Positions 1-34,696 of a stretch of 34,823 nucleotides of DNA are shown piece by piece. Below the pieces are notes generated by a model, which was not told where the DNA came from, made no database searches, and saw only the letters and a list, made by a program, of their open reading frames with translations. Numbering within the stretch: position 1 is the stretch's first letter; every line of letters begins with the position of its first letter. The stretch is from a virus. Location of the stretch: the UHGV virus genome UHGV-0362719. One strand, 5' to 3'. Both the position numbers and the translations under genes were made by a program.

Positions 1-497
1 TCCTCACGCAACAGCATAATTGCTTCGCGCAAGGGTAGATTGTCAGTACTTTTGCCATTAAGAATCAGTAAGCTGGCGGGAAATTCTGCCATGATCGTAT
101 GTGCCTTTATGATTGGTCTGTAGATAGTGTAGAGCAGAAAACAAAAGGTGGAGTCAGAACAGGATGAAAGTCGGAGGATAAAAAGTCAGTTCAAGTATGG
201 AGGATTCAGTGGTTACCACCAGGAGCTTGCAATGGGGACAGCGAATACTAACGGCTGCCACCGATAAATTTCAAAAAAGAGCATATACCTAATATTCAAC
301 TAAACAGTGGCATCTTCAATATAATATATTAAAGCCCCCATGGAGTTACCCTGAAGGGCCTCAATGTCCGTAATTCCTACTTATGTAGGAAATGTTGTAC
401 AGAACATTTATTATAATCCTATTCAATTATAATAATCATGCCATTATTATATTTAAACACTAGAGAGTGTCGTTGGTATTTAATGGGGGAAGGTGAG

Positions 498-815
498 ATG
501 AAAAAGATAGCTGCTATATCATTAATTAGTACTTTTATTATGTCTGGTTGTGCTGTGCATAATGATGAGACAAGTATCGGTAAATTTGGTCTTGCATATA
601 AAAGTAATATTCAGCGTAAACTCGATAACCAATACTACACCGAAGCCGAAGCTTCTTTAGCCAGGGGTAGAATATCTGGTGCAGAAAATATAGTAAAAAA
701 TGATGCAACTCATTTCTGTGTTACTCAGGGCAAAAAAATGCAAATAGTTGAGCTGAAGACAGAAGGTGTAGGATTACATGGTGTCGCTCGTCTGACATTC
801 AAATGTGGAGAGTGA
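498..815 (+). CDS. Host-side putative lipoprotein (signal peptide plus lipobox MSGC)
   Basis: Track ORF 438-815; I prefer the internal start MKKIAAISLISTFIMSGC at about 498, preceded by a GGAGGTGAG-like RBS. Hydrophobic signal and L-S-G-C lipobox seen in the translation. Lies outside the prophage. Confidence 0.5.
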   Translation: MKKIAAISLISTFIMSGCAVHNDETSIGKFGLAYKSNIQRKLDNQYYTEAEASLARGRISGAENIVKNDATHFCVTQGKKMQIVELKTEGVGLHGVARLTFKCGE

Positions 816-974
816 GAATATTTTTTGGTAAGCGTCAAATATGCGCGTTCTGGCTGTGCGTAGCCGGAACCTGTGGGAGCACGATGCCGATAAGTGAAAG
901 GCATCGTGCTATGAAGGAGGATTCTATCGATGTGGTCAATGGAAGACGGTTACCAGAGATAGGGCTTATGCATA

Positions 975-1001
975 AAAAAATAAGCCCGTGTAAGGGAGAT
1001 T
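975..1001. repeat. attL: attL core: 27-bp direct repeat AAAAAATAAGCCCGTGTAAGGGAGATT
   Basis: Exact 27-bp copy of the sequence at 34670-34696; matches my recollection of the P2 att core; lies about 80 bp from the 3' end of the integrase gene. Confidence 0.85.
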
Positions 1002-1080
1002 TAGGGTGTCACCAGTAGGGGCTTTCAACGGTACAATGCGGGTTTGAGCGGCATAAATTACCACTGAAAGCCCTTAAACG

Positions 1081-2094
1081 TTACTCTACTGTGGACACTG
1101 TGTGGACACTCTCGGCCTCAGTACCACCTCTTAGCGGATTAAGAGAAATGGCGTCCTGAAGGTACTCTGGCGCAAAATGAGCGTAAACCATAGTTTGCTC
1201 AATCCGCGTGTGACCTAGTATCCGTTGTAGCGTGATAATACTTCCTCCATTAATCATGAAATGAGTGGCAAAGCTGTGCCTTAGTGCATGTGTGGCTTGC
1301 CCCATTGGCAAATCCGGTTTTATTGCTTTCATTGTTCGTCTGAAGCGAGGGTAATCAGCATCAGGGAATAAAAAACCTCGTTTGTTATCCGCGATCATTT
1401 TGGCAACAGCCTCTGAGATCGGGACGGTGCGTGGTTTGTTTGTTTTCGTTTTAACAAACGTGACGCGGTTATGGATGATATTTTCTGCTTTCAAACGAGC
1501 TGCTTCTCCCCAACGCGCTCCTGTACTCAGGCAAAGAATCGCAATCTTTTTGTTGTCGCCGTCAAGAGCAGCAAGCAGTAAGGCAATTTCTTCCTGCGTG
1601 AGATAGCCTGTGTCTGGTTTTTCCTCCTTAAGCCTTTTTGTCCCTCTGATAGGGTGCTCACCAAAGAATAACTCCGCTTCAATCAGGGCTGTAAACATGC
1701 CGCTAATACATGTTAAATCACGATTGATACTCGAAGGTTTAATACCCTGACTTCTTCGGGTGGCGCAGTACTGGCTGATAAGCGATTTCGTAATTTGAAA
1801 TGCGCATGGGTCATTCGTTATTTTTGTGAAGATTTCAATTTTTCCAAGATTAGATTTCCCATGCTCTTCGTGTTTACCCTTTAAATCCCACCAGATCTGT
1901 GTCAGCTCCGACAGACGTCGCTTGTCTGTTGGTTTTGATAGCCATTCTTTATTGTGGTGGTTGTACAACGTGTATTTCTCGAAAGCGACAGCTTCGCTTT
2001 TCTTATCAAACTTCCTACGGATGCGTTTTCCATTACGTCCAGTAGGGCGGATGTCCACTTCATATCGACCATCATCGAGTTTTTTGATTGCCAT
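1081..2094 (-). CDS. int: Tyrosine site-specific integrase, P2 Int-like
   Basis: 337 aa (same as P2 Int); C-terminal region contains HxLRHxxA...Y-type catalytic motifs (ATHALRHSFATHF...GHTRIEQTMVYAH); adjacent to attL. Confidence 0.95.
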   Translation of the reverse strand: MAIKKLDDGRYEVDIRPTGRNGKRIRRKFDKKSEAVAFEKYTLYNHHNKEWLSKPTDKRRLSELTQIWWDLKGKHEEHGKSNLGKIEIFTKITNDPCAFQITKSLISQYCATRRSQGIKPSSINRDLTCISGMFTALIEAELFFGEHPIRGTKRLKEEKPDTGYLTQEEIALLLAALDGDNKKIAILCLSTGARWGEAARLKAENIIHNRVTFVKTKTNKPRTVPISEAVAKMIADNKRGFLFPDADYPRFRRTMKAIKPDLPMGQATHALRHSFATHFMINGGSIITLQRILGHTRIEQTMVYAHFAPEYLQDAISLNPLRGGTEAESVHTVSTVE

Positions 2095-2209
2095 CAGAAA
2101 ACCCTCCGAGTGGTGTGTTTTTTTGCGACTACTAATCGCTTTTTTCGTGGTGGCTGAAATTTAGCCACCAATAGTAGGCACTTGTGATGAATATATTCAC
2201 GATGAATTG

Positions 2210-2509
2210 TTAACCAGTCTTTTGACCGGAGTGGGGCGACGTTGTTTCGTTTTGCCCAAAGTGTGCGAGAGCGGGCGCAATTTGCCCGGACTCAGGAGCG
2301 ATCTGATTGGTCATGAACCATAAAGTGTATTTGGTGAATTGTGGGGTCTGCAGGATGTTCATCATGACATCTGTTGGAGGTGTTGAACGACCACTTTCAT
2401 AGTAACTCAGCGTGCCATACGGAACCCCTGTTAAATCAGCAAGTTGTTGTCTGCTCAAATACTCTGATTTTCGCATTAAGACTATCTTCTCGCTTATCGT
2501 GTTTGACAT
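2210..2509 (-). CDS. C: Immunity repressor C (HTH)
   Basis: 99 aa (same as P2 C); helix-turn-helix segment LSRQQLADLTGVPYGTLSYYE; divergent from cox across a repeat-containing intergenic region. Confidence 0.85.
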   Translation of the reverse strand: MSNTISEKIVLMRKSEYLSRQQLADLTGVPYGTLSYYESGRSTPPTDVMMNILQTPQFTKYTLWFMTNQIAPESGQIAPALAHFGQNETTSPHSGQKTG

Positions 2510-4391: not shown

Positions 4392-4663
4392 GTATTCGTA
4401 TTGAAATTGGCGAACGTTATGTCGTTACCAGTGACAGCTTTCAGTTTATTCTCCACGAGAAAAAGAGAGCTGAAAGCGGTAAAAACGCCGGTCAGGAATG
4501 GCTGGCGGTGGTTGGTTATTACCCGAAATTAAGCCAGCTCGTTTCCGGCCTGATGCATCACGATATTCTGACCGGAAGCGCAAAGTCTTTTGCTGATTTA
4601 AACGCGCAGGTTGAGCAACTCAGCAAGCGTTGTTCAGAGGCTTTTGGCTCATATGGCCGTTAA
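4388..4663 (+). CDS. Early hypothetical protein, P2 orf83-like
   Basis: Track ORF immediately upstream of and overlapping the A start. Confidence 0.5.
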   Translation: MSIRIEIGERYVVTSDSFQFILHEKKRAESGKNAGQEWLAVVGYYPKLSQLVSGLMHHDILTGSAKSFADLNAQVEQLSKRCSEAFGSYGR

Positions 4664-6923
4664 AGCCTCCGGGCGTTTTGTCCCTCCGTCAGCATTTGCC
4701 GCAGGCACCGGTGAGACGTTTACCGGTGCTTATGCATGGAACGCGCCACGCGAGGCCGTCGGGCGCGAAAGACCCCTTACACGTGACGAGATGCGTCAGG
4801 TGCAAGGTGTTTTATCCACGATTAATCGCCTGCCTTACTTTTTGCGCTCGCTGTTTACTTCACGCTATGACTACATCCGGCGCAATAAAAGCCCGGTGCA
4901 CGGGTTTTATTTCCTCACATCCACTTTTCAGCGTCGTTTATGGCCGCGCATTGAGCGTGTGAATCAGCGCCATGAAATGAACACCGACGCGTCGATGCTG
5001 TTTCTGGCTGAGCGTGACCACTATGCGCGCCTGCCGGGAATGAATGACAAGGAGCTGAAAAAGTTTGCCGCCCGTATCTCATCGCAGCTTTTCATGATGT
5101 ATGAGGAACTCAGCGATGCCTGGGTGGATGCGCATGGCGAAAAAGAATCGCTGTTTACGGATGAGGCGCAGGCTCACCTCTATGGTCATGTTGCTGGCGC
5201 TGCACGTGCTTTCAATATTTCCCCTCTCTACTGGAAAAAATACCGTAAAGGACAGATGACCACGAGGCAGGCATATTCTGCCATTGCCCGTCTGTTTAAC
5301 GATGAGTGGTGGATTAGTCAGCTTAAAGGCCAGCGTATGCGCTGGCATGAGGCGTTACTGATTGCTGTCGGGGAGGTCAATAAAGACCGTTCTCCTTATG
5401 CCAGTAAACATGCCATTCGTGATGTGCGTGCACGCCGCCAGGCAAATCTGGAATTTCTTAAATCGTGTGATCTCGAAAACAGGGAAACAGGCGAGCGCAT
5501 CGACCTTATCAGTAAGGTGATGGGCAGTATTTCTAATCCTGAAATTCGCCGGATGGAGCTGATGAACACCATTGCCGGTATTGAGCGTTACGCCGCCGCA
5601 GAAGGTGATGTGGGGATGTTTATCACGCTGACCGCGCCGTCAAAGTATCACCCGACACGTCAGGTTGGAAAAGGCGAAAGTAAAACCGTCCAGCTAAATC
5701 ACGGCTGGAACGATGAGGCATTTAATCCAAAGGATGCGCAGCGTTATCTCTGCCGTATCTGGAGCCTGATGCGCACGGCATTCAAGGATAATGATTTACA
5801 GGTCTACGGTTTGCGAGTCGTCGAGCCACACCACGACGGAACGCCGCACTGGCATATGATGCTTTTTTGTAATCCACGCCAGCGTAACCAGATTATCGAA
5901 ATCATGCGTCGCTACGCGCTCAAAGAGGATGGCGACGAAAGAGGAGCTGCGCGAAACCGTTTTCAGGCAAAACATCTTAATCGGGGCGGTGCTGCGGGGT
6001 ATATCGCGAAATACATCTCAAAAAATATCGACGGCTATGCACTGGATGGGCAGCTCGATAACGATACCGGCAGACCGCTGAAAGATACTGCCGCGGCTGT
6101 TACCGCATGGGCGTCAACGTGGCGCATTCCGCAATTTAAAACGGTTGGCCTGCCGACAATGGGGGCTTACCGTGAACTACGCAAATTGCCTCGCGGCGTC
6201 AGCATTGCTGATGAGTTTGACGAGCGCGTCGAGGCTGCACGCGCCGCCGCAGACAGTGGTGATTTTGCGCTGTATATCAGCGCGCAGGGTGGGGCAAATG
6301 TCCCGCGCGATTGTCAGACTGTCAGGGTCGCCCGTAGTCCGTCGGATGAAGTTAACGAGTACGAGGAAGAAGTCGAGAGAGTGGTCGGCATTTACGCGCC
6401 GCATCTCGGCGCGCGTCATATTCATATCACCAGAACGACGGACTGGCGCATTGTTCCGAAAGTGCCGGTCGTTGAGCCTTTGACTTTAAAAAGCGGCATC
6501 GCCGCGCCTCGGAGTCCTGTCAATAACTGTGGAAAGCTCACCGGTGGTGATACTTCGTTACCGGCTCCCACACCTTCTGAACACGCCGCAGCAGTGCTTA
6601 ATCTGGTTGATGACGGTGTTATCGAATGGAATGACACGGAGGTCGTGAGGGCGCTCAGGGGGGCATTAAAACACGACCTGAGAACACCAAATCGTCAGCA
6701 AAGAAACGGAAGCCCGTTAAAACCACATGAAATTGCACCATCGGCCCGACTGACCCGGTCGGAACGAATGCAAATCACCCGTATCCGCGTTGACCTTGCC
6801 CAGAACGGTATCAGGCCGCAGCGATGGGAGCTTGAGGTGCTGGCGCGTGGCGCGACCGTAAATTATGACGGGAAAAAATTCACGTATCCGGTCACTGATG
6901 AGTGGCCGGGGTTTGTGGATTAA
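4650..6923 (+). CDS. A: Rolling-circle replication initiator / nickase A
   Basis: Track ORF 4611-6923 (770 aa); I prefer the start MAVKASGRF at about 4650, giving about 757 aa (P2 A about 761 aa). Largest early gene, directly after the orf80-83 block. Start codon uncertain. Confidence 0.85.
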   Translation, partial: HMAVKASGRFVPPSAFAAGTGETFTGAYAWNAPREAVGRERPLTRDEMRQVQGVLSTINRLPYFLRSLFTSRYDYIRRNKSPVHGFYFLTSTFQRRLWPRIERVNQRHEMNTDASMLFLAERDHYARLPGMNDKELKKFAARISSQLFMMYEELSDAWVDAHGEKESLFTDEAQAHLYGHVAGAARAFNISPLYWKKYRKGQMTTRQAYSAIARLFNDEWWISQLKGQRMRWHEALLIAVGEVNKDRSPYASKHAIRDVRARRQANLEFLKSCDLENRETGERIDLISKVMGSISNPEIRRMELMNTIAGIERYAAAEGDVGMFITLTAPSKYHPTRQVGKGESKTVQLNHGWNDEAFNPKDAQRYLCRIWSLMRTAFKDNDLQVYGLRVVEPHHDGTPHWHMMLFCNPRQRNQIIEIMRRYALKEDGDERGAARNRFQAKHLNRGGAAGYIAKYISKNIDGYALDGQLDNDTGRPLKDTAAAVTAWASTWRIPQFKTVGLPTMGAYRELRKLPRGVSIADEFDERVEAARAAADSGDFALYISAQGGANVPRDCQTVRVARSPSDEVNEYEEEVERVVGIYAPHLGARHIHITRTTDWRIVPKVPVVEPLTLKSGIAAPRSPVNNCGKLTGGDTSLPAPTPSEHAAAVLNLVDDGVIEWNDTEVVRALRGALKHDLRTPNRQQRNGSPLKPHEIAPSARLTRSERMQITRIRVDLAQNGIRPQRWELEVLARGATVNYDGKKFTYPVTDEWPGFVD

Positions 6924-6968
6924 ACTTATTGATAAATAATGTGTCAAGATAACGCCAGGTAATTATAT

Positions 6969-7406
6969 ATGGTAAGAGTTTGCATTGATAAGAAAGGGAA
7001 TGTTATCACCGATATCTCTTTGGGAGTCGGGGATTTTGAAGATTGTTGTAGCGTAGCAGAGGAGAAGTATAATCAGGCACTTTGCAGTAATTTTGTGAGT
7101 GTGGTGGCAGTGGTGAATGACGATAATGAGAAAATAGGTTTTTGTTCATTCATCATTGAATCTACAGAGGACGCTGTAATATATCAAATCGATTATGTTT
7201 GGGTTAAGCAAAGTGAGCGGGGACAAGGGTTATCAAAATTAATGATTCCTTATGTGGCTCAAGAGCTTATTTCTATTTATAAAGACTTGCTTGGAAAGTA
7301 TTCATTTGGTGATATATGTCTTTGTGATAATTCTGTTTATATATCGGATGGAGGGGCTGTTTTTGGTCGAGGGGTAAAGGGATTCACCTTTAATGTAATT
7401 AAGTAA
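6969..7406 (+). CDS. Cargo ORF, GNAT-like acetyltransferase candidate
   Basis: 145 aa, low GC. Segment VWVKQSERGQGLSKLMI resembles the GNAT motif-A acetyl-CoA loop (R-G-x-G-h-g). Weak, by-eye call. Confidence 0.4.
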   Translation: MVRVCIDKKGNVITDISLGVGDFEDCCSVAEEKYNQALCSNFVSVVAVVNDDNEKIGFCSFIIESTEDAVIYQIDYVWVKQSERGQGLSKLMIPYVAQELISIYKDLLGKYSFGDICLCDNSVYISDGGAVFGRGVKGFTFNVIK

Positions 7407-7462
7407 TTCCGGGTGAAATGAAAAAGATATCTCAATGTTTGAGATGGAACAAATTTAAGAAA

Positions 7463-7500
7463 CTCCGCCGGTGCTGAAACTTGCTTTCAGTGCTGGCGGA
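7463..7500. terminator. Bidirectional hairpin between convergent cargo ORFs
   Basis: Seen: about 15-bp imperfect stem (CCGCCGGTGCTGAAA / TTTCAGTGCTGGCGG, three G-U wobbles) with loop CTTGC, lying between the stops of 6969-7406 (+) and 7515-7946 (-). Confidence 0.5.
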
Positions 7501-7514
7501 GGTGAAGTAAGGCG

Positions 7515-7946
7515 TTAGCTAGTTATCAGATTGACACCGAGGGTAAGCAGGTTTGTTACTGCACCGGCAATAACACCAGGTGTCCCGTCCTTCACTGCGC
7601 TGATAATCTTATCTCCCATCGTTTCATTACCGCCAAGTGCTTCGGGTTTTTTGTTGAGCACCGCGAGTGCTTTCTCGGTCAGTCGCACATCATGAAAACC
7701 GGTCTGATGGTCTGTTCCGTACAGAATATAGCCGTTTTCGCTTAAGAAAGTGAATGTGCCATCAACCACACTACGCAACTGATTCAGTGCTTTCATTTCT
7801 GGTGAGTTAAGTTGGTCAAAGTAGTCATCAGGTAACGCGGCGTTAAATTTTTTGTAGGTGATGACTTGTGGTACAGGAAAGTTATCCCATAGCACCGCAA
7901 AGATTTCTGCCGTCTGTTGGTTGAATAATTCGAGATTTTTGGACAT
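7515..7946 (-). CDS. Cargo hypothetical protein (143 aa), unknown function
   Basis: Track ORF with AAGGGA RBS about 8 nt upstream of ATG; hydrophobic Gly/Ala-rich C-terminal tail (GTPGVIAGAVTNLLTLGVNLI). No recognisable family. Confidence 0.55.
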   Translation of the reverse strand: MSKNLELFNQQTAEIFAVLWDNFPVPQVITYKKFNAALPDDYFDQLNSPEMKALNQLRSVVDGTFTFLSENGYILYGTDHQTGFHDVRLTEKALAVLNKKPEALGGNETMGDKIISAVKDGTPGVIAGAVTNLLTLGVNLITS

Positions 7947-8450
7947 GCATAGTTCCCTTTCATCAATTAAAGACCCTTATGCCGACTGGGCAAAGAGGCT
8001 AACTGTAATGGCCTCAAATAACGACCTGAGCTCACGCGAGGTGGACAGTTACACTGAAAAAATGGTTGAACAAGCCAGTAAAGATGAGCTTATGGTCGTT
8101 ATAAAATACCTGTTAAATCACATCAGAATGAGTAAATAAAATGATCTATATCAAGATGTTATCTCACATTTATGAAAGTCCGTGGACAACGATTTTTCTG
8201 CTAATTGTTGTCAGTACGTGCCTCAACAGTGTGATTGGTGCATTGCGCGGCCAGTGACAACTATAAAAATTGATCAGAACCGGCACCATGAATGCCGGTT
8301 TTTTTGTGCTTTTTCTGTGATATCCCCGTTTTTATCTGTGCATGGTTTTGCATGTGCCGGAGTTACATGTTCTGGCTGTGCGTCCGCCAGGACTGGCGTG
8401 GCTCAAAAGCGGTATTGCAACTGCATTAAAACCGCCCCATGAAGCGGGCG

Positions 8451-8469
8451 GGCGAGGCGGGGAAAGCAC
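8451..8469. promoter_or_regulatory. cos: Putative cos site (19-nt cohesive end GGCGAGGCGGGGAAAGCAC)
   Basis: Seen: exact 19-mer GGCGAGGCGGGGAAAGCAC at 8451-8469 with flanking dyad symmetry (CCGCCC...GGGCGG). Matches my recollection of the P2/P4 cohesive-end sequence, which I cannot verify here. Confidence 0.5.
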
Positions 8470-8575
8470 CGCGCGTAAGATAAACAGAAGAGCGAAGGAT
8501 TATGGTTGAGTATTTGTGTTTTTGTACATATGATAAAAAGGTGTTTACGCTTAAAAACACATCAAAGGAGATGAT

Positions 8576-9877
8576 ATGGAAAATATAAAGATTGATAAGT
8601 TTCTCACTATTCAAAAAGTTGATATTCCTCTTAAGAAAGTGAATATATTTATTGGGCCTCAGGCACAGGGGAAAAGTGTCATTGCAAAGCTAATAAAATA
8701 TTTTAAAGATTACCCTATGGATATACTACGAGCTTCAACAGAGGGTAAAACTAAAAGAGATATATTGAAGGAGCAAAAGAATAAGTTTAGTAAAATTTTC
8801 CCTCAGCAGTATTGGGCTGATGATGAGTTTTTTATTGAGTATAGTAATAAGCACTATTGGGTGCGGATTACTAATCGAAAAGATAGCAAAGGGTCATTGA
8901 AAATAACCCTTTCTGAGAATTTAACGAAGACGATTGCTAAACTTCGTTTGATTGTACGAAAGGATTTAGATGAAAATATTGAGAATTCACTTGCAGAAAG
9001 CGTTACGAGAAGACGTAAACGCGGAATTGAACATGAATTGCGAGTATGTCTTTCTCTAGGATTGTTTTCAGAACCAGAAACAAAGCTTGAAAGTGTTTTT
9101 TATATCCCCGCAGGGCGCTCTTTTTTTGCTAACTTGCAAAAAAATGTGTTTTCATTTTTATCCAGTAGTATAGAAATTGACTACTTTTTGACAGAGTTTG
9201 GTTCTCTGTATGAACAAACAAAAAAATTATTTAGCCAAGATTACATGATTAGGATGCTTAGGGGGGCTGTGCCTCAACATGTTAATAAGCTTGTGGAGGA
9301 GTTGATTTGCGGAAAATATATAACAGAAAAGGGTGAGGATTTTATTCGTCATGCTGCTAAAAAGACGAATCTTAACAACTCGAGCTCAGGGCAGCAAGAA
9401 GCGTTACCAATGGCTTTAATGTTATCCTCATGGCCGTATTTACAGTCTATGACTAGTAAGAGTTTTATTATTGAGGAGCCGGAGGCTCATCTGTTTCCTT
9501 CTGCCCAAGCAAAAGTTGTATCTTTAATAGCCTCAGCGTATAACCAAGCAGAAAGCTATTGTAGCTATACAATAACAACACATAGCCCATATATTCTAAG
9601 TGCCTTCAATAATTTGATTCAAGCAGGTAATGCATTGAAGTGTATTAAGGGCAAGAATAATGCCGATATCGAACGCTTATATAAGCTTGTTCCAGAGTCT
9701 CAAATTATTGATTTTGATGATGTGACAGCTTATATGGTTAATGCTGGGAAAGTGACGGAAATACTGGATTCCGAACTAAATATATTAGATGCGAATGAAA
9801 TAGATAGGATTTCCTCTATTTTTTCAGAGACTTTTGATGCATTGATTGATATCGAATATTCGGCTACTGTGAATTAG
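8576..9877 (+). CDS. ABC-type (OLD/SMC/RecF-like AAA_15/AAA_21-type) ATPase, candidate defence protein
   Basis: 433 aa, strong AAGGAG RBS. Seen motifs: Walker A GPQAQGKS; signature-like SSGQQ; Walker B/D-loop FIIEEPEAHLFP; H-loop TTHSP. No TOPRIM-like C-terminal domain evident. Very low GC relative to the backbone. Confidence 0.8.
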   Translation: MENIKIDKFLTIQKVDIPLKKVNIFIGPQAQGKSVIAKLIKYFKDYPMDILRASTEGKTKRDILKEQKNKFSKIFPQQYWADDEFFIEYSNKHYWVRITNRKDSKGSLKITLSENLTKTIAKLRLIVRKDLDENIENSLAESVTRRRKRGIEHELRVCLSLGLFSEPETKLESVFYIPAGRSFFANLQKNVFSFLSSSIEIDYFLTEFGSLYEQTKKLFSQDYMIRMLRGAVPQHVNKLVEELICGKYITEKGEDFIRHAAKKTNLNNSSSGQQEALPMALMLSSWPYLQSMTSKSFIIEEPEAHLFPSAQAKVVSLIASAYNQAESYCSYTITTHSPYILSAFNNLIQAGNALKCIKGKNNADIERLYKLVPESQIIDFDDVTAYMVNAGKVTEILDSELNILDANEIDRISSIFSETFDALIDIEYSATVN

Positions 9878-9885
9878 GTGATTGA

Positions 9886-10323
9886 ATGTGTAAAAATTGC
9901 AAAGGAAAAACAAAAAATAAAATCATTGTGCTATCTGATAAAGGAACGTCAACGCAATTGTCAGTCATAAATGATAATGAGTTGGAGGTTGAGCATAAGT
10001 TAATAGATGGTTGCGCTATTGTTGTTGGGGAGCGGTGTGATCATTATTTGAAGATTTATAACAATCAGGATGTTTCACATCTTTTTGTTGAACTTAAAGG
10101 AAGTGATGTTGAAAAAGCTGTTAAACAGATAGTGACAACTTTAAAGTCAGGTGTGATTAATGTAGGTGCTAAAGAAAAAAAACATGGTGCTATTGTTAGC
10201 ACTAGGAATCCGCTAAACTCAACAGAAACCAATAAGTTAAAGAAGAAAATTCTTTTGAGTGACGGAGTGAATTTGCATTTCTATAAAATGAAGGCGCAGC
10301 AAAAAATAACTTCTTTTACATGA
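9886..10323 (+). CDS. Small partner protein of the ABC ATPase (145 aa), possible nuclease-like effector
   Basis: Starts 9 bp after the ATPase stop, same strand (operon). N-terminal CKNCKGK (CxxC); possible D...ExK arrangement (ERCDHY ... LFVELKG). Nuclease assignment is inference only. Confidence 0.6.
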   Translation: MCKNCKGKTKNKIIVLSDKGTSTQLSVINDNELEVEHKLIDGCAIVVGERCDHYLKIYNNQDVSHLFVELKGSDVEKAVKQIVTTLKSGVINVGAKEKKHGAIVSTRNPLNSTETNKLKKKILLSDGVNLHFYKMKAQQKITSFT

Positions 10324-10336
10324 AGTGTTCTCTTGT

Positions 10337-10360
10337 ACAGGCATGCATTTGCATGCCTGT
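10337..10360 (+). terminator. Palindromic hairpin after the ATPase cassette
   Basis: Seen: ACAGGCATGCA-TT-TGCATGCCTGT near-perfect palindrome 14 bp after the 10323 stop, followed by a weak T-rich stretch. Confidence 0.4.
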
Positions 10361-10426
10361 CGTGTAATCTTTTACACTATATTTGTGTTGGTTCTAATCT
10401 TGTTATGTGTTTGTTTCGGTGATGGA

Positions 10427-11446
10427 TCATAATGAATAAGTTCGAAAGCGAAATACATCTTCGCCAACCCAACAGTTAATTTCTTTACATCGCTCTTGGA
10501 GGAACGTTAGCTCGTTGCGTACAAAGACTTGTGCTGCTTTTGTTACATCTCCAAATCCTCCTGTGTTGTTGGGCATCATTCCTATCATTTGGGGAGGCAC
10601 GCGATGAGCACTCATTAGATCTTCAGCACTTGCTTTTTTGATATTAAAAAAATCGTCCTTCGTTGCCACTTCACTGAGCGGGATAATTTTAATGCCGTCG
10701 GCTTTCCCCTGCGGGGCATAGAGAAACAGATTTTTAAAGTTATTGCGGCCTTTCGACTTAACCATGTTTTCGCGAAGCATTTCGATATCGTTGCGATCCT
10801 GCACGGCATCGGTGACGTACATGATGTATCCGGCATGTGCGCCATTTTCGTAATACTTGCGGCGGAACAGCGTGGCTGATTCATTCAGCCAGGCAGAGTT
10901 AAGGGCGCTGAGATACTCCGGCAGGCCGTACAGCTCCTGATTAATATCCGGCTCCAGCAGGTGAAACACGGAGCCGGGCGCGAAAGGTGTCGGCTCGTTG
11001 AAGGACGGCACCCACCAGTAAACATCCTCCTCCACGCCACGGCGGGTATATTTTGCCGGTGAGGTTTCCAGTCTGATGACCTTACCGGTGGTGCTGTAAC
11101 GCTTTTCCAGAAACGCATTACCGAATACCAGAAAATCCAGCACAAAGCGGCTGAAATCCTGCTGAGAAAGCCACGGGTGTGGGATAAACGTTGAGGCCAG
11201 AATGTTACGTTTGACGTAAATCGGTGAGCTGTGATGCACGGCAGCACGCAGGCTTTTTGCCAGACCGGTAAAGCTGACTGGTGGCTCATACCATCTGCCG
11301 TTACTGATGCACTCGACGTAATCCAGAATGTCACGGCGGTCGAGTACCGGCACCGGCTCACCAAAGGTGAATGCCTCCATTTTCGGGGCGCTGGCGGTCA
11401 TTTTTTTTGCCGCAGGTTGCGGTGTTTTCCCTTTTTTCTTGCTCAT
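10427..11446 (-). CDS. Q: Portal protein Q
   Basis: 339 aa (P2 Q about 344 aa), leftward, immediately downstream of P with overlapping stop/start; synteny. Confidence 0.9.
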   Translation of the reverse strand: MSKKKGKTPQPAAKKMTASAPKMEAFTFGEPVPVLDRRDILDYVECISNGRWYEPPVSFTGLAKSLRAAVHHSSPIYVKRNILASTFIPHPWLSQQDFSRFVLDFLVFGNAFLEKRYSTTGKVIRLETSPAKYTRRGVEEDVYWWVPSFNEPTPFAPGSVFHLLEPDINQELYGLPEYLSALNSAWLNESATLFRRKYYENGAHAGYIMYVTDAVQDRNDIEMLRENMVKSKGRNNFKNLFLYAPQGKADGIKIIPLSEVATKDDFFNIKKASAEDLMSAHRVPPQMIGMMPNNTGGFGDVTKAAQVFVRNELTFLQERCKEINCWVGEDVFRFRTYSL

Positions 11447-13218
11447 CAGTAAAACTCCAGAATGGTGGATGTCAGCGGGGTGCTGATACCGGCGGTGAGT
11501 GGCTCATTTAACAGGGCGTGCATGGTCGCCCAGGCGAGGTCGGCGTGGCTGGCTTCCTCGCTACGGCTGGCCTCATAGGTGGCGCTGCGTCCGCTGCTGG
11601 TCATGGTCTTGCGGATAGCCATGAACGAGCTGGTGATGTCGGTGGCGCTGACGTCATATTCCAGACAGCCACGGCGGATGACGTCTTTTGCCTTGAGCAC
11701 CATTGCGGTTTTCATTTCCGGCGTGTAGCGGATATCGCGCGCGGCGGGATAGAACGAGCGCACGAGCTGGAACACGCCGACACCGAGGCCGGTGGCATCA
11801 ATTCCGATGTATTCGACGTTGTATTTTTCGGTGAGTTTGCGGATGGATTCCGCCTGAGTGGCAAAGTCCATGCCTTTCCACTGGTGACGCTCAAGTATTC
11901 TGAATTTACCTCCGGCCACCACCGGCGGTGCCAGCACCACGCATCCGGCGCTGTCGCCACGGTGTGACGGGTCGTAACCAATCCATACCGGGCGGGAGCC
12001 GAACGGATTGGCGGCAAACGGCGCATAGTCTTCCCATTCTTCCAGCGTGTCGACCATGCAGCGTTGCAGCTCCTCGAACGGGAATACCGACGCCTTGTCG
12101 TCAACAAATTCACACATGAACAGGTTTTTAAAATCGTCGGCGCTGTTTTCGCGTTTGAGCTGCTCAATGTCGAACAGCGTGCAGCCGCCTTTCAGGGCGT
12201 CCTCAATGGTGACAATCTGCCGCCACTGGCCGTCCGCACAGAGAAGCCCACCGGCAAGGGCGTTATGACTGACGTCGATTTCCACGCGTTCGGCGGCGCT
12301 GGCGCGTCCCCGGTTAAACAGTTCACCCGACCAGAACGGGTAGGCGTCGTGCGCCAGCGTGGACGGGGTGGAGAAATAGGTCGAGCGCAGGTGACTCTGT
12401 GAGGCCATACCTGATGCCACCTTACGCAGTACCTGAAAATTCGGGATCCAGAAAATCTCGTCGACGTACAGGTCGCCGTTATGGCTCTGCGCGGTGTTGG
12501 AGTTGGTGCCGAGAAAAATCAGTTTTGCGCCGTTATTGCCCAGGACAATCGGGTCACCGGTCAGGTCAACGTCAACCAGCCGGGCAAAGGCGATGATGTA
12601 TTCGCGGAACACATACGCCTGCGTTTTACTGGCCGACAGAAAAATCTGGTTATGACCGGTTTTCAGGGCACGCAGCAGCGCCTCGCGGGAAAAATAAAAC
12701 GTTGCGCCAATCTGGCGGGATTTCAGGATATCGCGGATGCGGTGCTCAAGCCCGGCGCGATACCAGTGCAACTGATAGTCGAAAGACTGCTCAAAGAAAA
12801 TCTGCTCCAGCTTTTCGATGGCTTCGTCGCTGAAAAAATTCTTTTTCGGTTTGCGCCGCCCGCCTTTGTTGCGGTTAGCGATGTTCGGATTAAGGTCTGC
12901 CTCGTTGCCGGTCTGACTGTAGCGGTTGACCCGTGCCAGTCGTTCAATCTGGCGTCCCAGCAGGTCAATTTCCTTGAAGTCACCGCCGGTTTTCTGCGGT
13001 TTGATGATGAGCTGGGTCAGCCGCGCTTCCAGACTCATTTCGACACGGCTGATGGGGGCAACGCTGTCCCAGCCGTCGCGCTGTTTCCAGCTCTGCACCG
13101 TCGGGCGTTTCATCTGCAACATGGCGGCAATCTGCGGCACGGAAAACCCCTGCCAGTACAGCAGCGCCGCCTGACGACGCGGGTCGTGTAAAAGAGTGGT
13201 GTCTGTGGTGATGGTCAT
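11446..13218 (-). CDS. P: Terminase large (ATPase) subunit P
   Basis: Track ORF 11446-13248 (600 aa); start MTITTDTT gives 590 aa, the same as P2 P. Leftward, divergent from O. Confidence 0.9.
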   Translation of the reverse strand: MTITTDTTLLHDPRRQAALLYWQGFSVPQIAAMLQMKRPTVQSWKQRDGWDSVAPISRVEMSLEARLTQLIIKPQKTGGDFKEIDLLGRQIERLARVNRYSQTGNEADLNPNIANRNKGGRRKPKKNFFSDEAIEKLEQIFFEQSFDYQLHWYRAGLEHRIRDILKSRQIGATFYFSREALLRALKTGHNQIFLSASKTQAYVFREYIIAFARLVDVDLTGDPIVLGNNGAKLIFLGTNSNTAQSHNGDLYVDEIFWIPNFQVLRKVASGMASQSHLRSTYFSTPSTLAHDAYPFWSGELFNRGRASAAERVEIDVSHNALAGGLLCADGQWRQIVTIEDALKGGCTLFDIEQLKRENSADDFKNLFMCEFVDDKASVFPFEELQRCMVDTLEEWEDYAPFAANPFGSRPVWIGYDPSHRGDSAGCVVLAPPVVAGGKFRILERHQWKGMDFATQAESIRKLTEKYNVEYIGIDATGLGVGVFQLVRSFYPAARDIRYTPEMKTAMVLKAKDVIRRGCLEYDVSATDITSSFMAIRKTMTSSGRSATYEASRSEEASHADLAWATMHALLNEPLTAGISTPLTSTILEFY

Positions 13219-22958: not shown

Positions 22959-25277
22959 ATGAGCACAAAATTCAAAACCGTTATCACCACTGCCGGTGCA
23001 GCAAAGCTGGCAGCGGCAACCGCGCCGGGAGGGCGGAAGGTCAACATTACCACGATGGCCGTCGGGGATGGCGGTGGTAAATTGCCTGTCCCGGATGCCG
23101 GACAGACCGGGCTTATCCACGAAGTCTGGCGACATGCGCTGAACAAAATCAGCCAGGACAAACGAAACAGTAATTATATTATCGCAGAGCTGGTTATTCC
23201 GCCGGAGGTGGGCGGTTTCTGGATGCGTGAGCTTGGCCTGTACGATGATGCGGGAACGTTAATTGCTGTGGCGAACATGGCCGAAAGTTATAAGCCAGCT
23301 CTTGCCGAAGGCTCAGGGCGTTCGCAGACCTGCCGCATGGTCATCATCGTCAGCAGTGTGGCCTCAGTGGCGCTGACCATTGACACCACAACGGTGATGG
23401 CGACGCAGGATTACGTTGATGACAAAATTGCAGAACATGAACAGTCACGACGTCACCCGGACGCCTCGCTGACCGCAAAAGGTTTTACTCAGTTAAGCAG
23501 TGCGACTAACAGCACGTCTGAAACACTGGCTGCAACGCCAAAGGCGGTAAAGGCCGCATATGACCTTGCTAACGGGAAATATACCGCACAGGACGCCACC
23601 ACAGCACGAAAAGGCCTTGTCCAGCTCAGTAGTGCCACCAACAGCACGTCTGAAACGCTCGCCGCAACACCAAAAGCGGTAAAAGCAGCATATGACCTTG
23701 CTAACGGGAAATATACCGCACAGGACGCCACCACAGCGCGAAAAGGCCTTGTTCAGCTCAGTAGCGCCACCAACAGCGATTCTGAAACGCTGGCCGCAAC
23801 GCCAAAGGCGGTAAAGGTCGCGTATGACCTTGCTAACGGGAAATACACTGCACAGGATGCCACCACCGCGCGAAAAGGTCTTGTCCAGCTCAGTAGCGCC
23901 ACCAACAGTGATTCTGAAACACTGGCCGCAACACCAAAAGCGGTGAAGTCTGCCTATGACAATGCTGAAAAACGTCTTCAGAAAGATCAGAATGGTGCGG
24001 ATATTCCGGGAAAGGATACCTTCACGAAAAATATCGGTGCCTGTCGTGCTTATAGCGGCGCTTTGAGCACTGAAGCCGGAAACTGGACAACCGCTCAGTT
24101 TATTGAATGGCTGGATTCCCGTGGTGCATTTAATCATCCGTACTGGATGTGCAAAGGCTCCTGGTCATATGCAAATAACAAAATCATTACGGATACCGGA
24201 TGTGGTGATATCCACCTGGCTGGTTGTGTCGTCGAGGTCATGGGAACAAAATCTGCAATCACTATTCGAGTGACCACGCCGACAACATCAAGCGGTGGCG
24301 GTACAACCAGCGCGCAATTCACTTACATTAATCATGGGGACGGCTACTCCCCCGGCTGGCGTCGTGACTGGAATCGTCAGGGCGACGCAATGACCGGAAC
24401 GATTAATCAGGATGGCGGAAGCCAGAATGCCTATATGTCTACGGCCTTATGTTCAGGCACCAGAGGCGGCAAAAAATATCTCAGAAAGTTTCGTGGTGGA
24501 GAAGGAGACACTATCTGGCATGAAACAGTGCAGGGCGGGGTAATTCGCTGGGCGACAGGAAACTATGACGCTCAGGAAGAATTATCACTCAGCTCCGCTT
24601 ATGGTCTCCGTTCTAGAGGTGAAATTACATCACTCAGTGCTAATGGTCTGCGCATTGCTTATGGCAATTATGGATTCTTTATCAGGAATGATGGTGGCAG
24701 CACATATTTAATGCTGACGGCCTCTGGTGATAAATTTGGGACATGGAACGGTTTAAGGCCGCTGACTATCAATAACGCTAATGGCGGAGTGTCAATGGGG
24801 CATGGCCTGAGTGTTACTGGTGATATTGCCTCAAGTACCAAAGTACGTGCCGGTAGCGGGAAAAAGTTCACGGTCAGCAGCAGCAATACATCCACGAAGG
24901 AAGCCGCATTCAATTTGTGGGGAAACTCAAGTCGTCCTGTGGTGGCTGAATTAGGTGATGATGCAGGCTGGCATTTTTACAGTCAGAGAAATACAGATAA
25001 CAGCATCACTTTTGCTGTTAACGGGCAGGTATCACCATCTAACTATAGTAATTTTGATTCACGCTATGTCCGGGATATCCGGCTTGGTGGTGCTGCCACA
25101 TACAAACCTGCGAACAATGGCATGACATGGACACATCAGGCACCGTCCGGGTGTGTATATTCCGGCATTATTGTTCAGGATACCGGCTCAAACTCTGCCG
25201 ATAACATTGGTGGCGTATATTACAGACCGGTTCAGAAATACATTAACGGGACATGGTACAACGTGGCGCAGGTATAA
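22959..25277 (+). CDS. H: Tail fibre protein H (extended, repeat-containing, mosaic C-terminus)
   Basis: 772 aa; N-terminal about 170 aa is the conserved P2 H baseplate-attachment region (MSTKFKTVITTAGAAKLAAATAPGG...); central 44-aa tandem repeats; Gly/Ser-rich C-terminal half. P2 H is about 669 aa by recollection. Confidence 0.9.
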   Translation: MSTKFKTVITTAGAAKLAAATAPGGRKVNITTMAVGDGGGKLPVPDAGQTGLIHEVWRHALNKISQDKRNSNYIIAELVIPPEVGGFWMRELGLYDDAGTLIAVANMAESYKPALAEGSGRSQTCRMVIIVSSVASVALTIDTTTVMATQDYVDDKIAEHEQSRRHPDASLTAKGFTQLSSATNSTSETLAATPKAVKAAYDLANGKYTAQDATTARKGLVQLSSATNSTSETLAATPKAVKAAYDLANGKYTAQDATTARKGLVQLSSATNSDSETLAATPKAVKVAYDLANGKYTAQDATTARKGLVQLSSATNSDSETLAATPKAVKSAYDNAEKRLQKDQNGADIPGKDTFTKNIGACRAYSGALSTEAGNWTTAQFIEWLDSRGAFNHPYWMCKGSWSYANNKIITDTGCGDIHLAGCVVEVMGTKSAITIRVTTPTTSSGGGTTSAQFTYINHGDGYSPGWRRDWNRQGDAMTGTINQDGGSQNAYMSTALCSGTRGGKKYLRKFRGGEGDTIWHETVQGGVIRWATGNYDAQEELSLSSAYGLRSRGEITSLSANGLRIAYGNYGFFIRNDGGSTYLMLTASGDKFGTWNGLRPLTINNANGGVSMGHGLSVTGDIASSTKVRAGSGKKFTVSSSNTSTKEAAFNLWGNSSRPVVAELGDDAGWHFYSQRNTDNSITFAVNGQVSPSNYSNFDSRYVRDIRLGGAATYKPANNGMTWTHQAPSGCVYSGIIVQDTGSNSADNIGGVYYRPVQKYINGTWYNVAQV
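23478..23960 (+). repeat. Tandem 132-bp (44-aa) repeats, about 3.6 copies, inside tail fibre gene H
   Basis: Seen in the translation: KG(F/L)(T/V)QLSSATNS(T/D)SETLAATPKAVKAAYDLANGKYTAQDATTAR repeated 3 times plus a partial 4th. Minus-strand track ORFs 23489-23734 and 23493-24137 show the same periodicity. Confidence 0.85.
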
Positions 25278-25280
25278 TTT

Positions 25281-25808
25281 ATGCAGCATTTGATAAATAT
25301 AACGGCAGGTAATCCAAAAACGGTTGAACAATATCAATTGACAAAGGACTTTGATGTTGTCTGGTTTTTTACAGAAGATGGTAAGAACTGGTACGAAGAA
25401 CAAAAGTATTTTGCTGATGACACGATAAAAATAGCGTACGACAAAGATAATATTATCCGCTATGTAGAAAAGGATGTGACAGCTATCAGACCGGATGGAT
25501 TAAGTGTTGTTGAAGTGCCGGATATTACTGCTAACCGACGGGCGGACATTTCAGGGAACTGGATGTTTAAGGACGGCAAAGTGATTAAACGCATTTATAC
25601 GGCAGAGGAATTACAACAGCAGGCAGAAATTCGGAAAGCCAGACTTCTTGCAGATGCTGAATCCGTGATTTTGCCGCTGGAGCGCGCTGTCAGGCTGAAT
25701 ATGGCAACAGAGGAGGAGCGCACACGGCTGGAGGCTTGGGAACGCTACAGCGTTTTGGTCAGTCGTGTGGATCCTGCAAATCCTGAATGGCCGGAAATGC
25801 CGCAATAA
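25281..25808 (+). CDS. G: Tail fibre assembly chaperone G
   Basis: 175 aa (same as P2 G), immediately after H. Confidence 0.8.
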
Positions 25809-25983
25809 GTTGTATAAGCTCTGGTGTGAGATTACATATCTATGGCACAGAGTAAAGCCTAATCTGGCAGTCCGCTCTGTGCCATTACCGGACATACTGA
25901 GCAGAAGGCTAAAAAGGACGCTTTCAGGACATATAGCAAGGGAGCAAAGATGAAAGAATTAACCCAGTAATGATAGTTTCTGA

Positions 25984-26010
25984 ATTAAAGGGGGCTACCC
26001 ACCCCCTTTA
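25984..26010. terminator. Strong GC hairpin after the stop of the leftward cargo ORF
   Basis: Seen: TTAAAGGGGG-CTACCCA-CCCCCTTTAA (10-bp stem, 7-nt loop) with A/T-rich flanks, 2 bp from the stop of ORF 26012-26290 (-). Confidence 0.55.
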
Positions 26011-26011
26011 A

Positions 26012-26290
26012 TTACTTGTTCCACTCAGTCAGAATTTGGTTACTAACTTCATCTGAGAGATTGTACCAATAAGCTGAGTTATTGGTTGCGTCTACAACAA
26101 TAAGCTTATCATCACTATCCATGACCGCCCTCACAATTTTGGCTGCATCCTCGGCAGAGTAACTACAGTTAACATACCAGTTCGATTCAGTTGTTAAAGC
26201 CCAATTTCCTAAAGATTTAATTGCATCATACACAGCCGCATAATCTTTCGTTTTAATGAGGTCGTAAGTAATAAATAAATTATTAGCCAT
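26012..26290 (-). CDS. Cargo hypothetical protein (92 aa) at the G-FI (Z/fun) position
   Basis: Track ORF, AT-rich, opposite strand to the tail operons, followed by a hairpin terminator; no recognisable motif. Confidence 0.5.
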   Translation of the reverse strand: MANNLFITYDLIKTKDYAAVYDAIKSLGNWALTTESNWYVNCSYSAEDAAKIVRAVMDSDDKLIVVDATNNSAYWYNLSDEVSNQILTEWNK

Positions 26291-26342
26291 AAATCATCTC
26301 CCAAAGGACAAAGAAAAAAGCGCCTAGAAAGGCGCTCATATA

Positions 26343-26561
26343 TTAATGGTCTTTAAGCCATGCCTGTACTTTCTTAGCCGAATGACCTACAGCCTGTACG
26401 GCTTGAACAAGTTTGGCCTCGCTAACTCCAAACTTTTCAGCCCAATCACGTCTCTCGTAATCCTGTTTGATACTTATTAAATCATTGTCAGGGGTACCGA
26501 TTTTGGTCTTATCATCAGCCATTTTACTGATTCCTCGTGATACAGGCTTATACCTGCCCAT
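26343..26561 (-). CDS. Cargo small protein, DUF3606-like (by-eye resemblance)
   Basis: Track ORF (72 aa; alternative start MADDKTKIG gives about 59 aa). Segment DWAEKFGVSEAKLVQAVQAVGHSAKKVQAWL resembles DUF3606-family small proteins from memory. Confidence 0.45.
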   Translation of the reverse strand: MGRYKPVSRGISKMADDKTKIGTPDNDLISIKQDYERRDWAEKFGVSEAKLVQAVQAVGHSAKKVQAWLKDH

Positions 26562-27013
26562 TAGTTATATGGCTCCCGTGCTGCTTCGTAAACGTTCAAT
26601 AATCAAACAATTGACACTGATCATAAAACCAGTTAGAGGATTTGACTCTAGCTTGGATATATGATGATGCCACCCCCTTTATATTGTTGTCGGTAACTCA
26701 CAGACATTGAACTCATGCTGGTGAGTGAAAGGCTACATAAACGCCCAACATTTAAACTGCCCTCAGCAGCGTTTGCGGAGCAATATACAGGCTTCGTATT
26801 CAATCCTTGCCCTACGAGAAACCCTAGCCGTTGCCTCGTTTTCAAGTGTCAGGAAGTTCTTTGTCAGACCTCATACAGTCTTGGGCTGGGTGAGGTGCAT
26901 GGGGGAAGTAGAAGCCTTAACTGTTGAGGTAAATCGAACCATAAGTGTGCAATTTTTCAAGCCCGGCGCTATTTTAGTATTGAAAACAATTAGTACGCCC
27001 CCAAGGACAACTC

Positions 27014-27706
27014 ATGATCGAATTTATCGCAGAGCATATAAACACAGTAAGTACACTTATCTCCGCTTTGGCAGCATTGCTAACAGCAGTTGCTACATTT
27101 TTCTTGTGGAGAGTAACAAGGCTATTAGCAGACGAGACAAAAAGGATGGTTGACGCATCAGTTCAACCTCATGTCGTTGTGACTCTTGAACCAAATTCTT
27201 GGGCTGCTTTTTATTTTGATATCAATATTGCTAATACCGGAAATGCCCCAGCCTATGATATTGAAGTCGAATTTAATCCCCCACTGGTTAATGCAGAACA
27301 TAGAAAAAATAAAGGTATACCATTTAGCAAGGTTAGCGTATTGAAAAACGGTCATTCCCTCAACAGCAGTCTTTGTAAGTATGACCAGATTAAAGATCAA
27401 GTTTATTCTGTTAGTATTAGCTGGTCTAAACAGCCGGGCTCAACTGAAAGAGAGCGGAATGAGTATTCTTATGATATGGCTTCTTTCGAGGGGGTTAGCT
27501 ACTTAGGTGCAAGGAGTCCAATGACACAGATAGCTGAGCAGATGAAAAAGATTAGAGAAGACTGGAGGCCGATTTCCCAGGGAAGCAAAAAAATTAAAAC
27601 AGACAACTATAATTCAAGTGACAGAGCAGAGGAACAACGAGCACGTGAAGAGTGGTATCAGACCACTGTAAAGAAATGGGATAAAGAAAGGCCAAAAGAT
27701 AACTAA
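27014..27706 (+). CDS. Cargo membrane-anchored protein (230 aa) at the Z/fun position, candidate defence or exclusion protein
   Basis: Track ORF; N-terminal TM helix (VSTLISALAALLTAVATFFLW) followed by a soluble domain with a charged Lys/Glu/Arg-rich C-terminus; AT-rich; followed by terminator 27841-27870. Confidence 0.6.
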   Translation: MIEFIAEHINTVSTLISALAALLTAVATFFLWRVTRLLADETKRMVDASVQPHVVVTLEPNSWAAFYFDINIANTGNAPAYDIEVEFNPPLVNAEHRKNKGIPFSKVSVLKNGHSLNSSLCKYDQIKDQVYSVSISWSKQPGSTERERNEYSYDMASFEGVSYLGARSPMTQIAEQMKKIREDWRPISQGSKKIKTDNYNSSDRAEEQRAREEWYQTTVKKWDKERPKDN

Positions 27707-27840
27707 TACAATTGACCTGCTCCCCATAAATTAGCATACCACAATCTCAGGTTCCTCTTCGCTCAAAACAGGCTGTCAGATTTGATAGCGTTTTGGCTAT
27801 GTAAATTGTCAGTCGGAAAATGAGTGTGTACAAATCAGGA

Positions 27841-27870
27841 CAGGCGGGCAGATTGCCCGCCTTTTCTTTA
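27841..27870 (+). terminator. Rho-independent terminator downstream of the 230-aa cargo gene
   Basis: Seen: AGGCGGGCA-GAT-TGCCCGCCT perfect 9-bp stem followed by TTTTCTTT. Confidence 0.6.
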
Positions 27871-27965
27871 TCTGTTGTTTCATCCACTGACCAGCCAGGT
27901 CAAATAGCGTCTCATGTACTACCCAACGGAAAATAGTTGCACCCATTAACCACGGAGTTAAACGG

Positions 27966-34669: not shown

Positions 34670-34696
34670 AAAAAATAAGCCCGTGTAAGGGAGATT
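34670..34696. repeat. attR: attR core: 27-bp direct repeat AAAAAATAAGCCCGTGTAAGGGAGATT
   Basis: Exact copy of 975-1001, located about 100 bp downstream of ogr and its terminator. Confidence 0.85.

Follow-up and report, generated by a model that had tools for sequence, protein, structure and literature searches.

The 19-nt sequence at positions 8451-8469 of the window, the 34,823-bp stretch of DNA analyzed here, is very probably the cos site at which the DNA of an intact P2-type E. coli prophage is cleaved; in this prophage, the interval between cos and the portal gene Q has been filled with a cargo module, most likely through exchange between P2-like phages. The sequence, GGCGAGGCGGGGAAAGCAC, occurs only once in the window (plus strand, 0 mismatches), with approximately 0.01 matches expected by chance even at 3 allowed mismatches. 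An earlier note on this DNA had taken it for the cohesive end of P2 and P4, and comparison with both phages confirms this: the 19-mer is identical to bases 1-19 of P2 (NC_001895, annotated as 'cosL; left cohesive end') and to bases 1-19 of P4, as well as to the annotated cosR at 33575-33593 of NC_001895. The linear records of 186-type phages terminate exactly one base ahead of window position 8451. The 19-mer would be the interval between two staggered terminase nicks, and would form the single-stranded 5' terminus at the left of virion DNA.

The cos core and the surrounding prophage

The cos elements of the window are:

8451-8469 (+), 19-nt cohesive-end sequence, 19/19 to P2 cosL and to P4 1-19
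8422-8476, P2/P4 cos core of 55 bp (the 19-mer flanked by 29 bp to its left and 7 bp to its right)
8415-8450, cos left arm (-36 to -1), holding TTGCAACTGCAT and a CCGCCC-N8-GGGCGG hairpin

The 55-bp core, credited to Ziermann & Calendar 1990 in the available portions of PMC9594776 and PMC5694545, agrees with P2 at 52/55 positions and with P4 at 51/55, and P2 and P4 likewise agree with each other at 52/55. A search of IMG/VR with the exact 19-mer yielded 120 loci (96 P2-like, 23 P4-like and one unclassified), 119 of which have enough flanking sequence to enter a conservation profile. Conservation extends from -36 to +26, with at least 90% at most positions, and collapses outside this range. The window core equals the consensus of the 119 loci save for positions +1 and +7 past the 19-mer: the bases directly following the 19-mer are CGCGCG in the window and in P4 and TGCGCG in P2, and position +7 is T in the window and C in both phages. 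The left arm is a candidate for the side recognized by the terminase, and would become the right end of virion DNA. Many of the IMG/VR loci (L005-L124) also carry an A/T-rich run (e.g. ATTTATTTT) approximately 20-35 nt past cos, in right flanks that are otherwise unrelated. The run, which may be a bend or an IHF-type site, is present in P2-like and P4-like loci alike, absent from several cargo loci and not obvious in the window.

The 19-mer had also been described as embedded in a dyad-symmetric context, which holds only in part. Inverted repeats are present—a 6-bp pair CCGCCC/GGGCGG (8432-8437 and 8446-8451), whose 3' arm extends one base into the 19-mer, and a CGCGCG palindrome at 8470-8475—but the symmetry is weak and unremarkable. 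We rejected it as a special feature of the site: the repeats span 6 bp only, and the single-stranded fold of 8410-8490 has z = -1.48, with 14 of 200 shuffles folding equally well or better.

The site lies in the same place and orientation as in P2, between the replication and accessory region, with gene A upstream, and the convergent portal gene Q downstream, and the cognate terminase is encoded in the same prophage. The backbone features that define this context are:

975-1001 (+), left attachment core, 27 bp, pairing with 34670-34696
4611-6923, replication gene A
11449-13218 (-), terminase large subunit gpP, 99.8% identical to P2 gpP, full length, no stop codons
15382-16125 (+), terminase small subunit gpM, 98.0% identical to P2 gpM, full length
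34670-34696 (+), right attachment core, 27 bp, exact direct repeat

Between the exact 27-bp repeats lies an intact prophage of 33,695 bp, a length that differs by approximately 0.4% from the 33,574-bp circle of P2 (the 33,593-bp record less one 19-nt repeat). Its gene order is int-C-cox-B-A-(slot)-cos-(slot)-Q-P-O-N-M and onward. All essential genes of P2 are matched at full length in the window with zero stop codons; Int is 99.7% and repressor C 100% identical, and the core proteins overall are approximately 98% identical to those of P2. P2 is classically described as non-inducible by the SOS response. Divergence from P2 is limited to known non-essential regions: orf91/tin/old, fun(Z), the distal tail fibre and the cos-Q interval. 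The window is matched by the chromosome of E. coli strain 2452, where the RefSeq order is replication endonuclease, GNAT, two hypotheticals, AAA family ATPase, hypothetical and portal.

Two of the divergent regions lie away from cos. The fun(Z) slot between G and FI (approximately 25900-27900) has no fun(Z) homologue, and holds instead a DUF3606 protein (26343-26561, minus strand) and an ORF of 230 aa (27014-27706) that is matched in neither Pfam nor PADLOC. The tail-fibre gene H (22959-25808) encodes 772 aa compared with 669 aa in P2 and aligns to its P2 counterpart over residues 1-251 only, while G is 74% identical; the receptor-binding module has apparently been swapped.

Cargo on either side of cos

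Accessory genes flank cos on both sides:

6924-8421, A-side accessory slot, in the position of P2 orf91/tin/old, GC content 41.3%
6969-7406, GNAT gene with a weak acetyltransferase match
7515-7946 (-), hypothetical gene, 143 aa
8276-8302, terminator of the A-side slot
8477-10625 (+), foreign low-GC module, replacing approximately P2 27-386: spacer, tQ and the last ~66 codons of Q
8506-8534 (+), sigma-70-like promoter candidate, TTGAGT-17-TATGAT, reading away from cos
8576-9877 (+), AAA_15/AAA_21 (ABC/OLD-type) ATPase, 433 aa; Pfam AAA_15 at 8e-21; WP_023486639, 'AAA family ATPase'
9886-10323 (+), partner protein, 145 aa, adjacent downstream of the ATPase
10338-10361, hairpin, a consensus-level prediction
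10427-11446 (-), chimeric portal gene Q; Pfam Phage_portal; ~273 P2-type codons followed by a divergent C-terminus

The A-side slot further holds a small hypothetical gene. None of its genes has a PADLOC match, and P2 orf91, tin and old are not matched anywhere in the window. The ATPase pair is not part of this tin/old-type slot, which holds different genes. As the earlier note had it, the pair is located between cos and Q, on the opposite side of cos from tin and old, which occupy 30684-33380 in P2, with cosR from 33575. Its position also places the cassette, as claimed, at the left end of the packaged genome, at virion coordinates of approximately 126-1873. With cargo at 6924-8421 on the A side and the cassette on the Q side, accessory DNA comes to lie at both ends of the virion genome, and the split that had been proposed therefore stands. 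The total accessory DNA between A and Q amounts to 3,484 bp, compared with ~3,422 bp in P2; since both this total and the genome length are P2-like, capsid capacity appears to be respected. We found no significant compensation between the lengths of A-side and Q-side cargo, although the difference runs in the expected direction (medians of 1,822 versus 2,742 bp, p = 0.14, n = 6).

The cos-to-Q-stop distance is 1,957 nt in the window as opposed to 167 nt in P2, where the spacer between cosL and Q contains the terminator tQ. Alignment with P2 and with canonical P2-like loci breaks off at 8475/8476 and picks up again at 10626, inside Q, which sets the bounds of the foreign module at 8477-10625. 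The GC content of the intergenic and cargo sequence (8477-10426) is 34.7%, versus 52-58% in A, Q and P. No tQ-like sequence is left in the cos-Q interval of the window. On the minus strand at 8432-8451, the left-arm hairpin of cos followed by TTTTAATGCA scores as intrinsic-terminator-like, and could halt leftward transcription across cos, tQ being gone. The promoter candidate at 8506-8534 comes from a consensus scan in which the number of sites was not above shuffle expectation. The ATG at 8576 has an AAGGAG ribosome-binding site in front of it.

The replacement continues into the portal gene. While gpQ is 90.6% identical to its P2 counterpart overall, nucleotide identity falls from 95-100% over the first ~800 nt to 53-57% over the last ~200 nt, with the break at approximately nt 800. 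The foreign 3' part of Q (10427-10625, minus strand) is missing the acidic DTDND tail. The portal C-terminus is closest to those of two other loci with cargo between cos and Q, L096 (Avs5) and L013 (AAA ATPase), with 79-81% amino acid identity compared with 61% for canonical loci; the cargo of both is unrelated to that of the window. A cargo module that brings its own portal C-terminus is most simply a recombination footprint, and this joint travel is the one mildly unexpected point of the arrangement.

The two cargo genes form a module that we regard, on the strength of profile matches, as a candidate anti-phage system of the PADLOC PDC-M29 type. The ATPase matches PDC-M29A (2e-31, in two stretches) and the partner matches PDC-M29B weakly (2.8e-4). 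The ATPase is also AriA-like (1.7e-25), as in PARIS, but the partner is not a DUF4435/AriB protein. Searches of Pfam and NCBIfam returned no domain for the partner; a profile search against PDB sequences gave a best E of 0.13, and a single-sequence AlphaFold model (pLDDT 36) contained nothing usable. Across 22 homologues from several phyla, the invariant residues of the partner are C5, N29, D41, C43, C51, D52, E69-L70-K71-G72, Q81 and T85. The D...ExK pattern suggests, as far as a motif can, compatibility with a small PD-(D/E)xK-type nuclease.

The pair is widespread beyond E. coli: the ATPase gene lies directly 5' of the partner gene in 21 of 27 distant genomes, with carriers including Kosakonia (69% identity), Pseudomonas, methanotrophs, cyanobacteria, Campylobacterota and others. 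None of the distant copies adjoins a P2 cos or Q, and similarity between the window and the Kosakonia locus is confined to the two coding regions. This nearest pair outside of E. coli, in Kosakonia sacchari (FOAY01000004.1, approximately 4850-6735; 69% and 67% amino acid identity), begins ~120 nt past a sequence resembling the 3' end of a tRNA or tmRNA (GGTTCGACTCC...CCA), and is therefore probably part of an integrated island. Among 5,426 complete E. coli genomes, 10 contain the cassette, with the portal gene adjoining it every time. A DNA search of the phage collection found no phage record with this cassette, and a protein search of the same collection returned only 27-34% identical matches from fecal metagenome contigs.

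The cos-Q slot in other elements

The insertion point itself is not new, contrary to what the earlier note had supposed. The finding holds up but is unexceptional, as the slot and the hotspot around it were both known already. The available text of PMC5694545 calls the position between cos and Q a suggested hotspot, citing Dodd & Egan 1996 and Nakayama 1999. Known occupants of the slot are the retrons Ec67 and Ec86 in 186-related prophages (Dodd & Egan 1996), ctx of phiCTX (Nakayama 1999) and ORF1-4 of phiRSY1 (PMC5694545). The complete genome record of phiCTX shows cosL at 1-21, a promoter, ctx at 362-1222 (+), terminators and Q at 1417-2469 (-). In the accessible part of Rousset et al. 2022 (PMC9122126), the hotspot of E. 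coli P2-like prophages is bounded by gpA and gpQ, which takes in both sides of cos, and the window cassette, lying between the gpA replication endonuclease and the gpQ portal, belongs to it by definition. The supplement of the same study lists the exact arrangement of the window: WP_000042039, WP_000252694, WP_023486639 and WP_040030509.

The loci collected with the 19-mer place the window within this pattern. Foreign DNA separates the cos core from the 3' end of the portal gene in the window, and unrelated cargo uses the same position elsewhere, in 12 of the 96 P2-like loci sampled and in phiCTX with ctx. Of the 96 P2-like loci, 84 preserve the canonical right flank (P2 27-186) to a high degree, and the window lacks it altogether; divergence sets in directly past +7 in all 23 P4-like loci and in 12/96 P2-like loci. 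Cargo lengths could be measured in eight of the 12 loci with Q-side cargo (945-3,223 bp); three others lack Q within 900-2,240 bp of flank, and the remaining one is a truncated contig with the same cassette as the window. The other cos-Q cargo has 33-38% GC throughout and is mostly oriented from cos toward Q. Its profile matches, typical of defence cargo, include DRT2, Avs5, PD-T4-4, a retron RT of type IV, a PDC-S02 candidate and, weakly, an AAA-ATPase system; at two of the cos-Q cargo loci, no defence profile matched. In complete E. coli genomes, the canonical cos-Q junction occurs at 1,760 places and the cos core at 2,889, a difference that mixes in P4-like and 186-like elements and thus yields no fraction of sites with Q-side cargo.

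Compared with P2 itself, the window shares the 19-mer, the core, the place in the gene order, the orientation to Q and a near-identical terminase; it differs in the replacement of the Q side past +7, in the longer spacer without tQ, and in the T at +7. Like the known occupants of the slot, its cargo consists of low-GC foreign genes between the cohesive end and a convergent portal gene. Unlike them, the cargo is an AAA_15 ATPase with a 145-aa partner, and the replacement passes through the terminator into the 3' end of Q, resulting in a chimeric portal. The phiCTX cargo has an annotated promoter and terminators, whereas the window cassette has only a predicted promoter-like site.

Origin of the module and packaging of the prophage

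Homologous recombination between P2-like phages is the most likely source of the module, with one crossover in the cos core and another inside Q. Its junctions, the left one bordering the core and the right one falling within Q, fit such an exchange. The same module—cos, cassette and the 3' part of Q—is present at 98% identity in a P2-like prophage of E24377A (L154, NC_009801 987531-1029615). That prophage differs in its integrase (66-70% identity), in its attachment site, which lies between pflA and pflB, and in its A-side slot, so that more than one phage backbone must have carried the module. The E24377A prophage is decayed, with a truncated portal gene, a deletion of the genes Q to E and an IS21-family insertion in the tape-measure gene; it looks like a case of cargo kept while the phage decays. 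Given this degraded state, recombination, rather than infection, could account for how the module spread.

A route through a P4-like satellite, with the cassette shuttled by recombination across the common cos core, has some appeal on the cos side alone. The P4 hotspot (gop/beta/cII, flanked by cos and int) and the window cassette share their side of cos and their orientation, and the P4 cargo begins immediately past +7 as in the window, with gop/beta/cII starting 247 nt past cos; the window also shares the CGCGCG past the 19-mer with P4 rather than the TGCGCG of P2, and its left arm GCAACTGCATT is P4-like. The same GCAACTGCATT arm is, however, the consensus of P2-like loci too, and the right junction falls within Q, a gene absent from the P4 satellite. 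None of the 23 P4-like loci sampled has the cassette or its post-cos sequence, we found no cargo common to P4 and the window, and in complete E. coli genomes the cassette always adjoins the portal gene. According to the accessible part of PMC13586616, exchange of defence genes between P2 and P4 is almost nil. We consider such a transfer highly improbable, and rejected it as the likely origin on the grounds of the missing P4-like carrier, the lack of Q in P4 and the near absence of exchange in PMC13586616. A different doubt concerns function: the cos sequence could be intact and the site nevertheless crippled, because its flank, and possibly the portal C-terminus, has been replaced, turning the prophage into a poor packager or non-packager and a domesticated carrier of defence genes. 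The near-invariance of the canonical flank in 84/96 P2-like loci speaks for this, as do the cosmids with longer cos flanks that were transduced 11,597-fold and 50,828-fold better (PMC9594776); gains of at least four orders of magnitude mean that flanks may affect efficiency. Moreover, one of the two backbones with the module, E24377A, is a decayed prophage that keeps the cassette, and the phage collection has no phage record with it. Against it, P4 and all P4-like loci do without that flank, yet P4 is packaged by the P2 terminase (according to the available part of PMC9122126), and 12/96 P2-like loci do without it as well. The divergence of P4-like elements past +7, taken with the packaging of P4, implies that nothing sequence-specific beyond +7 is common to all terminase substrates. 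All essential genes of the window prophage are intact, its genome length is P2-like, and phiCTX has cargo in the same slot along with annotated cohesive ends. A crippled site is thus unlikely.

A functional cos within an exchanged P2-like module accordingly remains the reading that we prefer, and P2 biology gives an outline of how it would operate. After excision and replication, gpM and gpP would recognize the ~55-62-bp cos core on circular DNA, nick both strands 19 nt apart and package one genome. From its place on the map, base 8451 is predicted to be the 5'-terminal base of the left cohesive end, and the ATPase gene and its partner would come first on the linear virion map, just ahead of the convergent Q. 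Packaging would be expected to still work despite the replaced Q-side flank, because the first 7 bp are the only conserved sequence on the Q side.

Whether the left-end position has been selected for is a separate matter. If that end entered the cell first, the cassette might be expressed at the earliest moment, and both the cassette and its promoter-like site do lie wholly to the right of cos, so that linear DNA would contain them unbroken and expression could begin ahead of circularization. We found no statement in the accessible literature as to which P2 end is tail-proximal or injected first. It is the right end of P2 DNA, however, that Chattoraj and Inman reportedly found attached to the tail in 1974, which would make the left end the last to enter. 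A strict polarity of injection is disputed even for lambda (PMC10287942). The classic tin/old cargo, besides, sits at the other end, both ends carry cargo, and cassettes of this kind act from the resident prophage. Selection for early entry is therefore very unlikely, and a 'first-in' role of the cassette has no support. As the cassette has its own promoter-like site and resides in the lysogen, the order of entry has no obvious functional consequence.

The nearness of the window portal C-terminus to those of two cos-Q loci with unrelated cargo allows for one further reading, in which the gpA-gpQ hotspot consists of two independent slots abutting a ~62-bp cos island, and the Q-side slot, together with the 3' end of the portal gene, turns over as one unit. 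We regard this as rather improbable. If the swap of the portal C-terminus is more than a scar, the tail of the portal may have adapted along with the cargo, for instance if a portal of its own lets the phage escape portal- or terminase-sensing defence; alternatively, the ends cut by the terminase may drive the capture of cargo on both sides of cos. In the accessible parts of Rousset 2022 (PMC9122126) and PMC13586616, the region from A to Q is taken as one locus, whereas cos splits it into two slots in the window. The separation is a small refinement of surveys that, as far as their available text goes, treat A-to-Q as a single hotspot, not a discovery, and no new kind of element or mechanism is revealed. 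The portal-side conservation of only ~7 bp past the cohesive end is useful for the design of P2/P4 cosmids and the engineering of P2 cargo. For the prophage itself, the cos site anchors the virion map, and assigns the two accessory slots to opposite ends of the packaged DNA.
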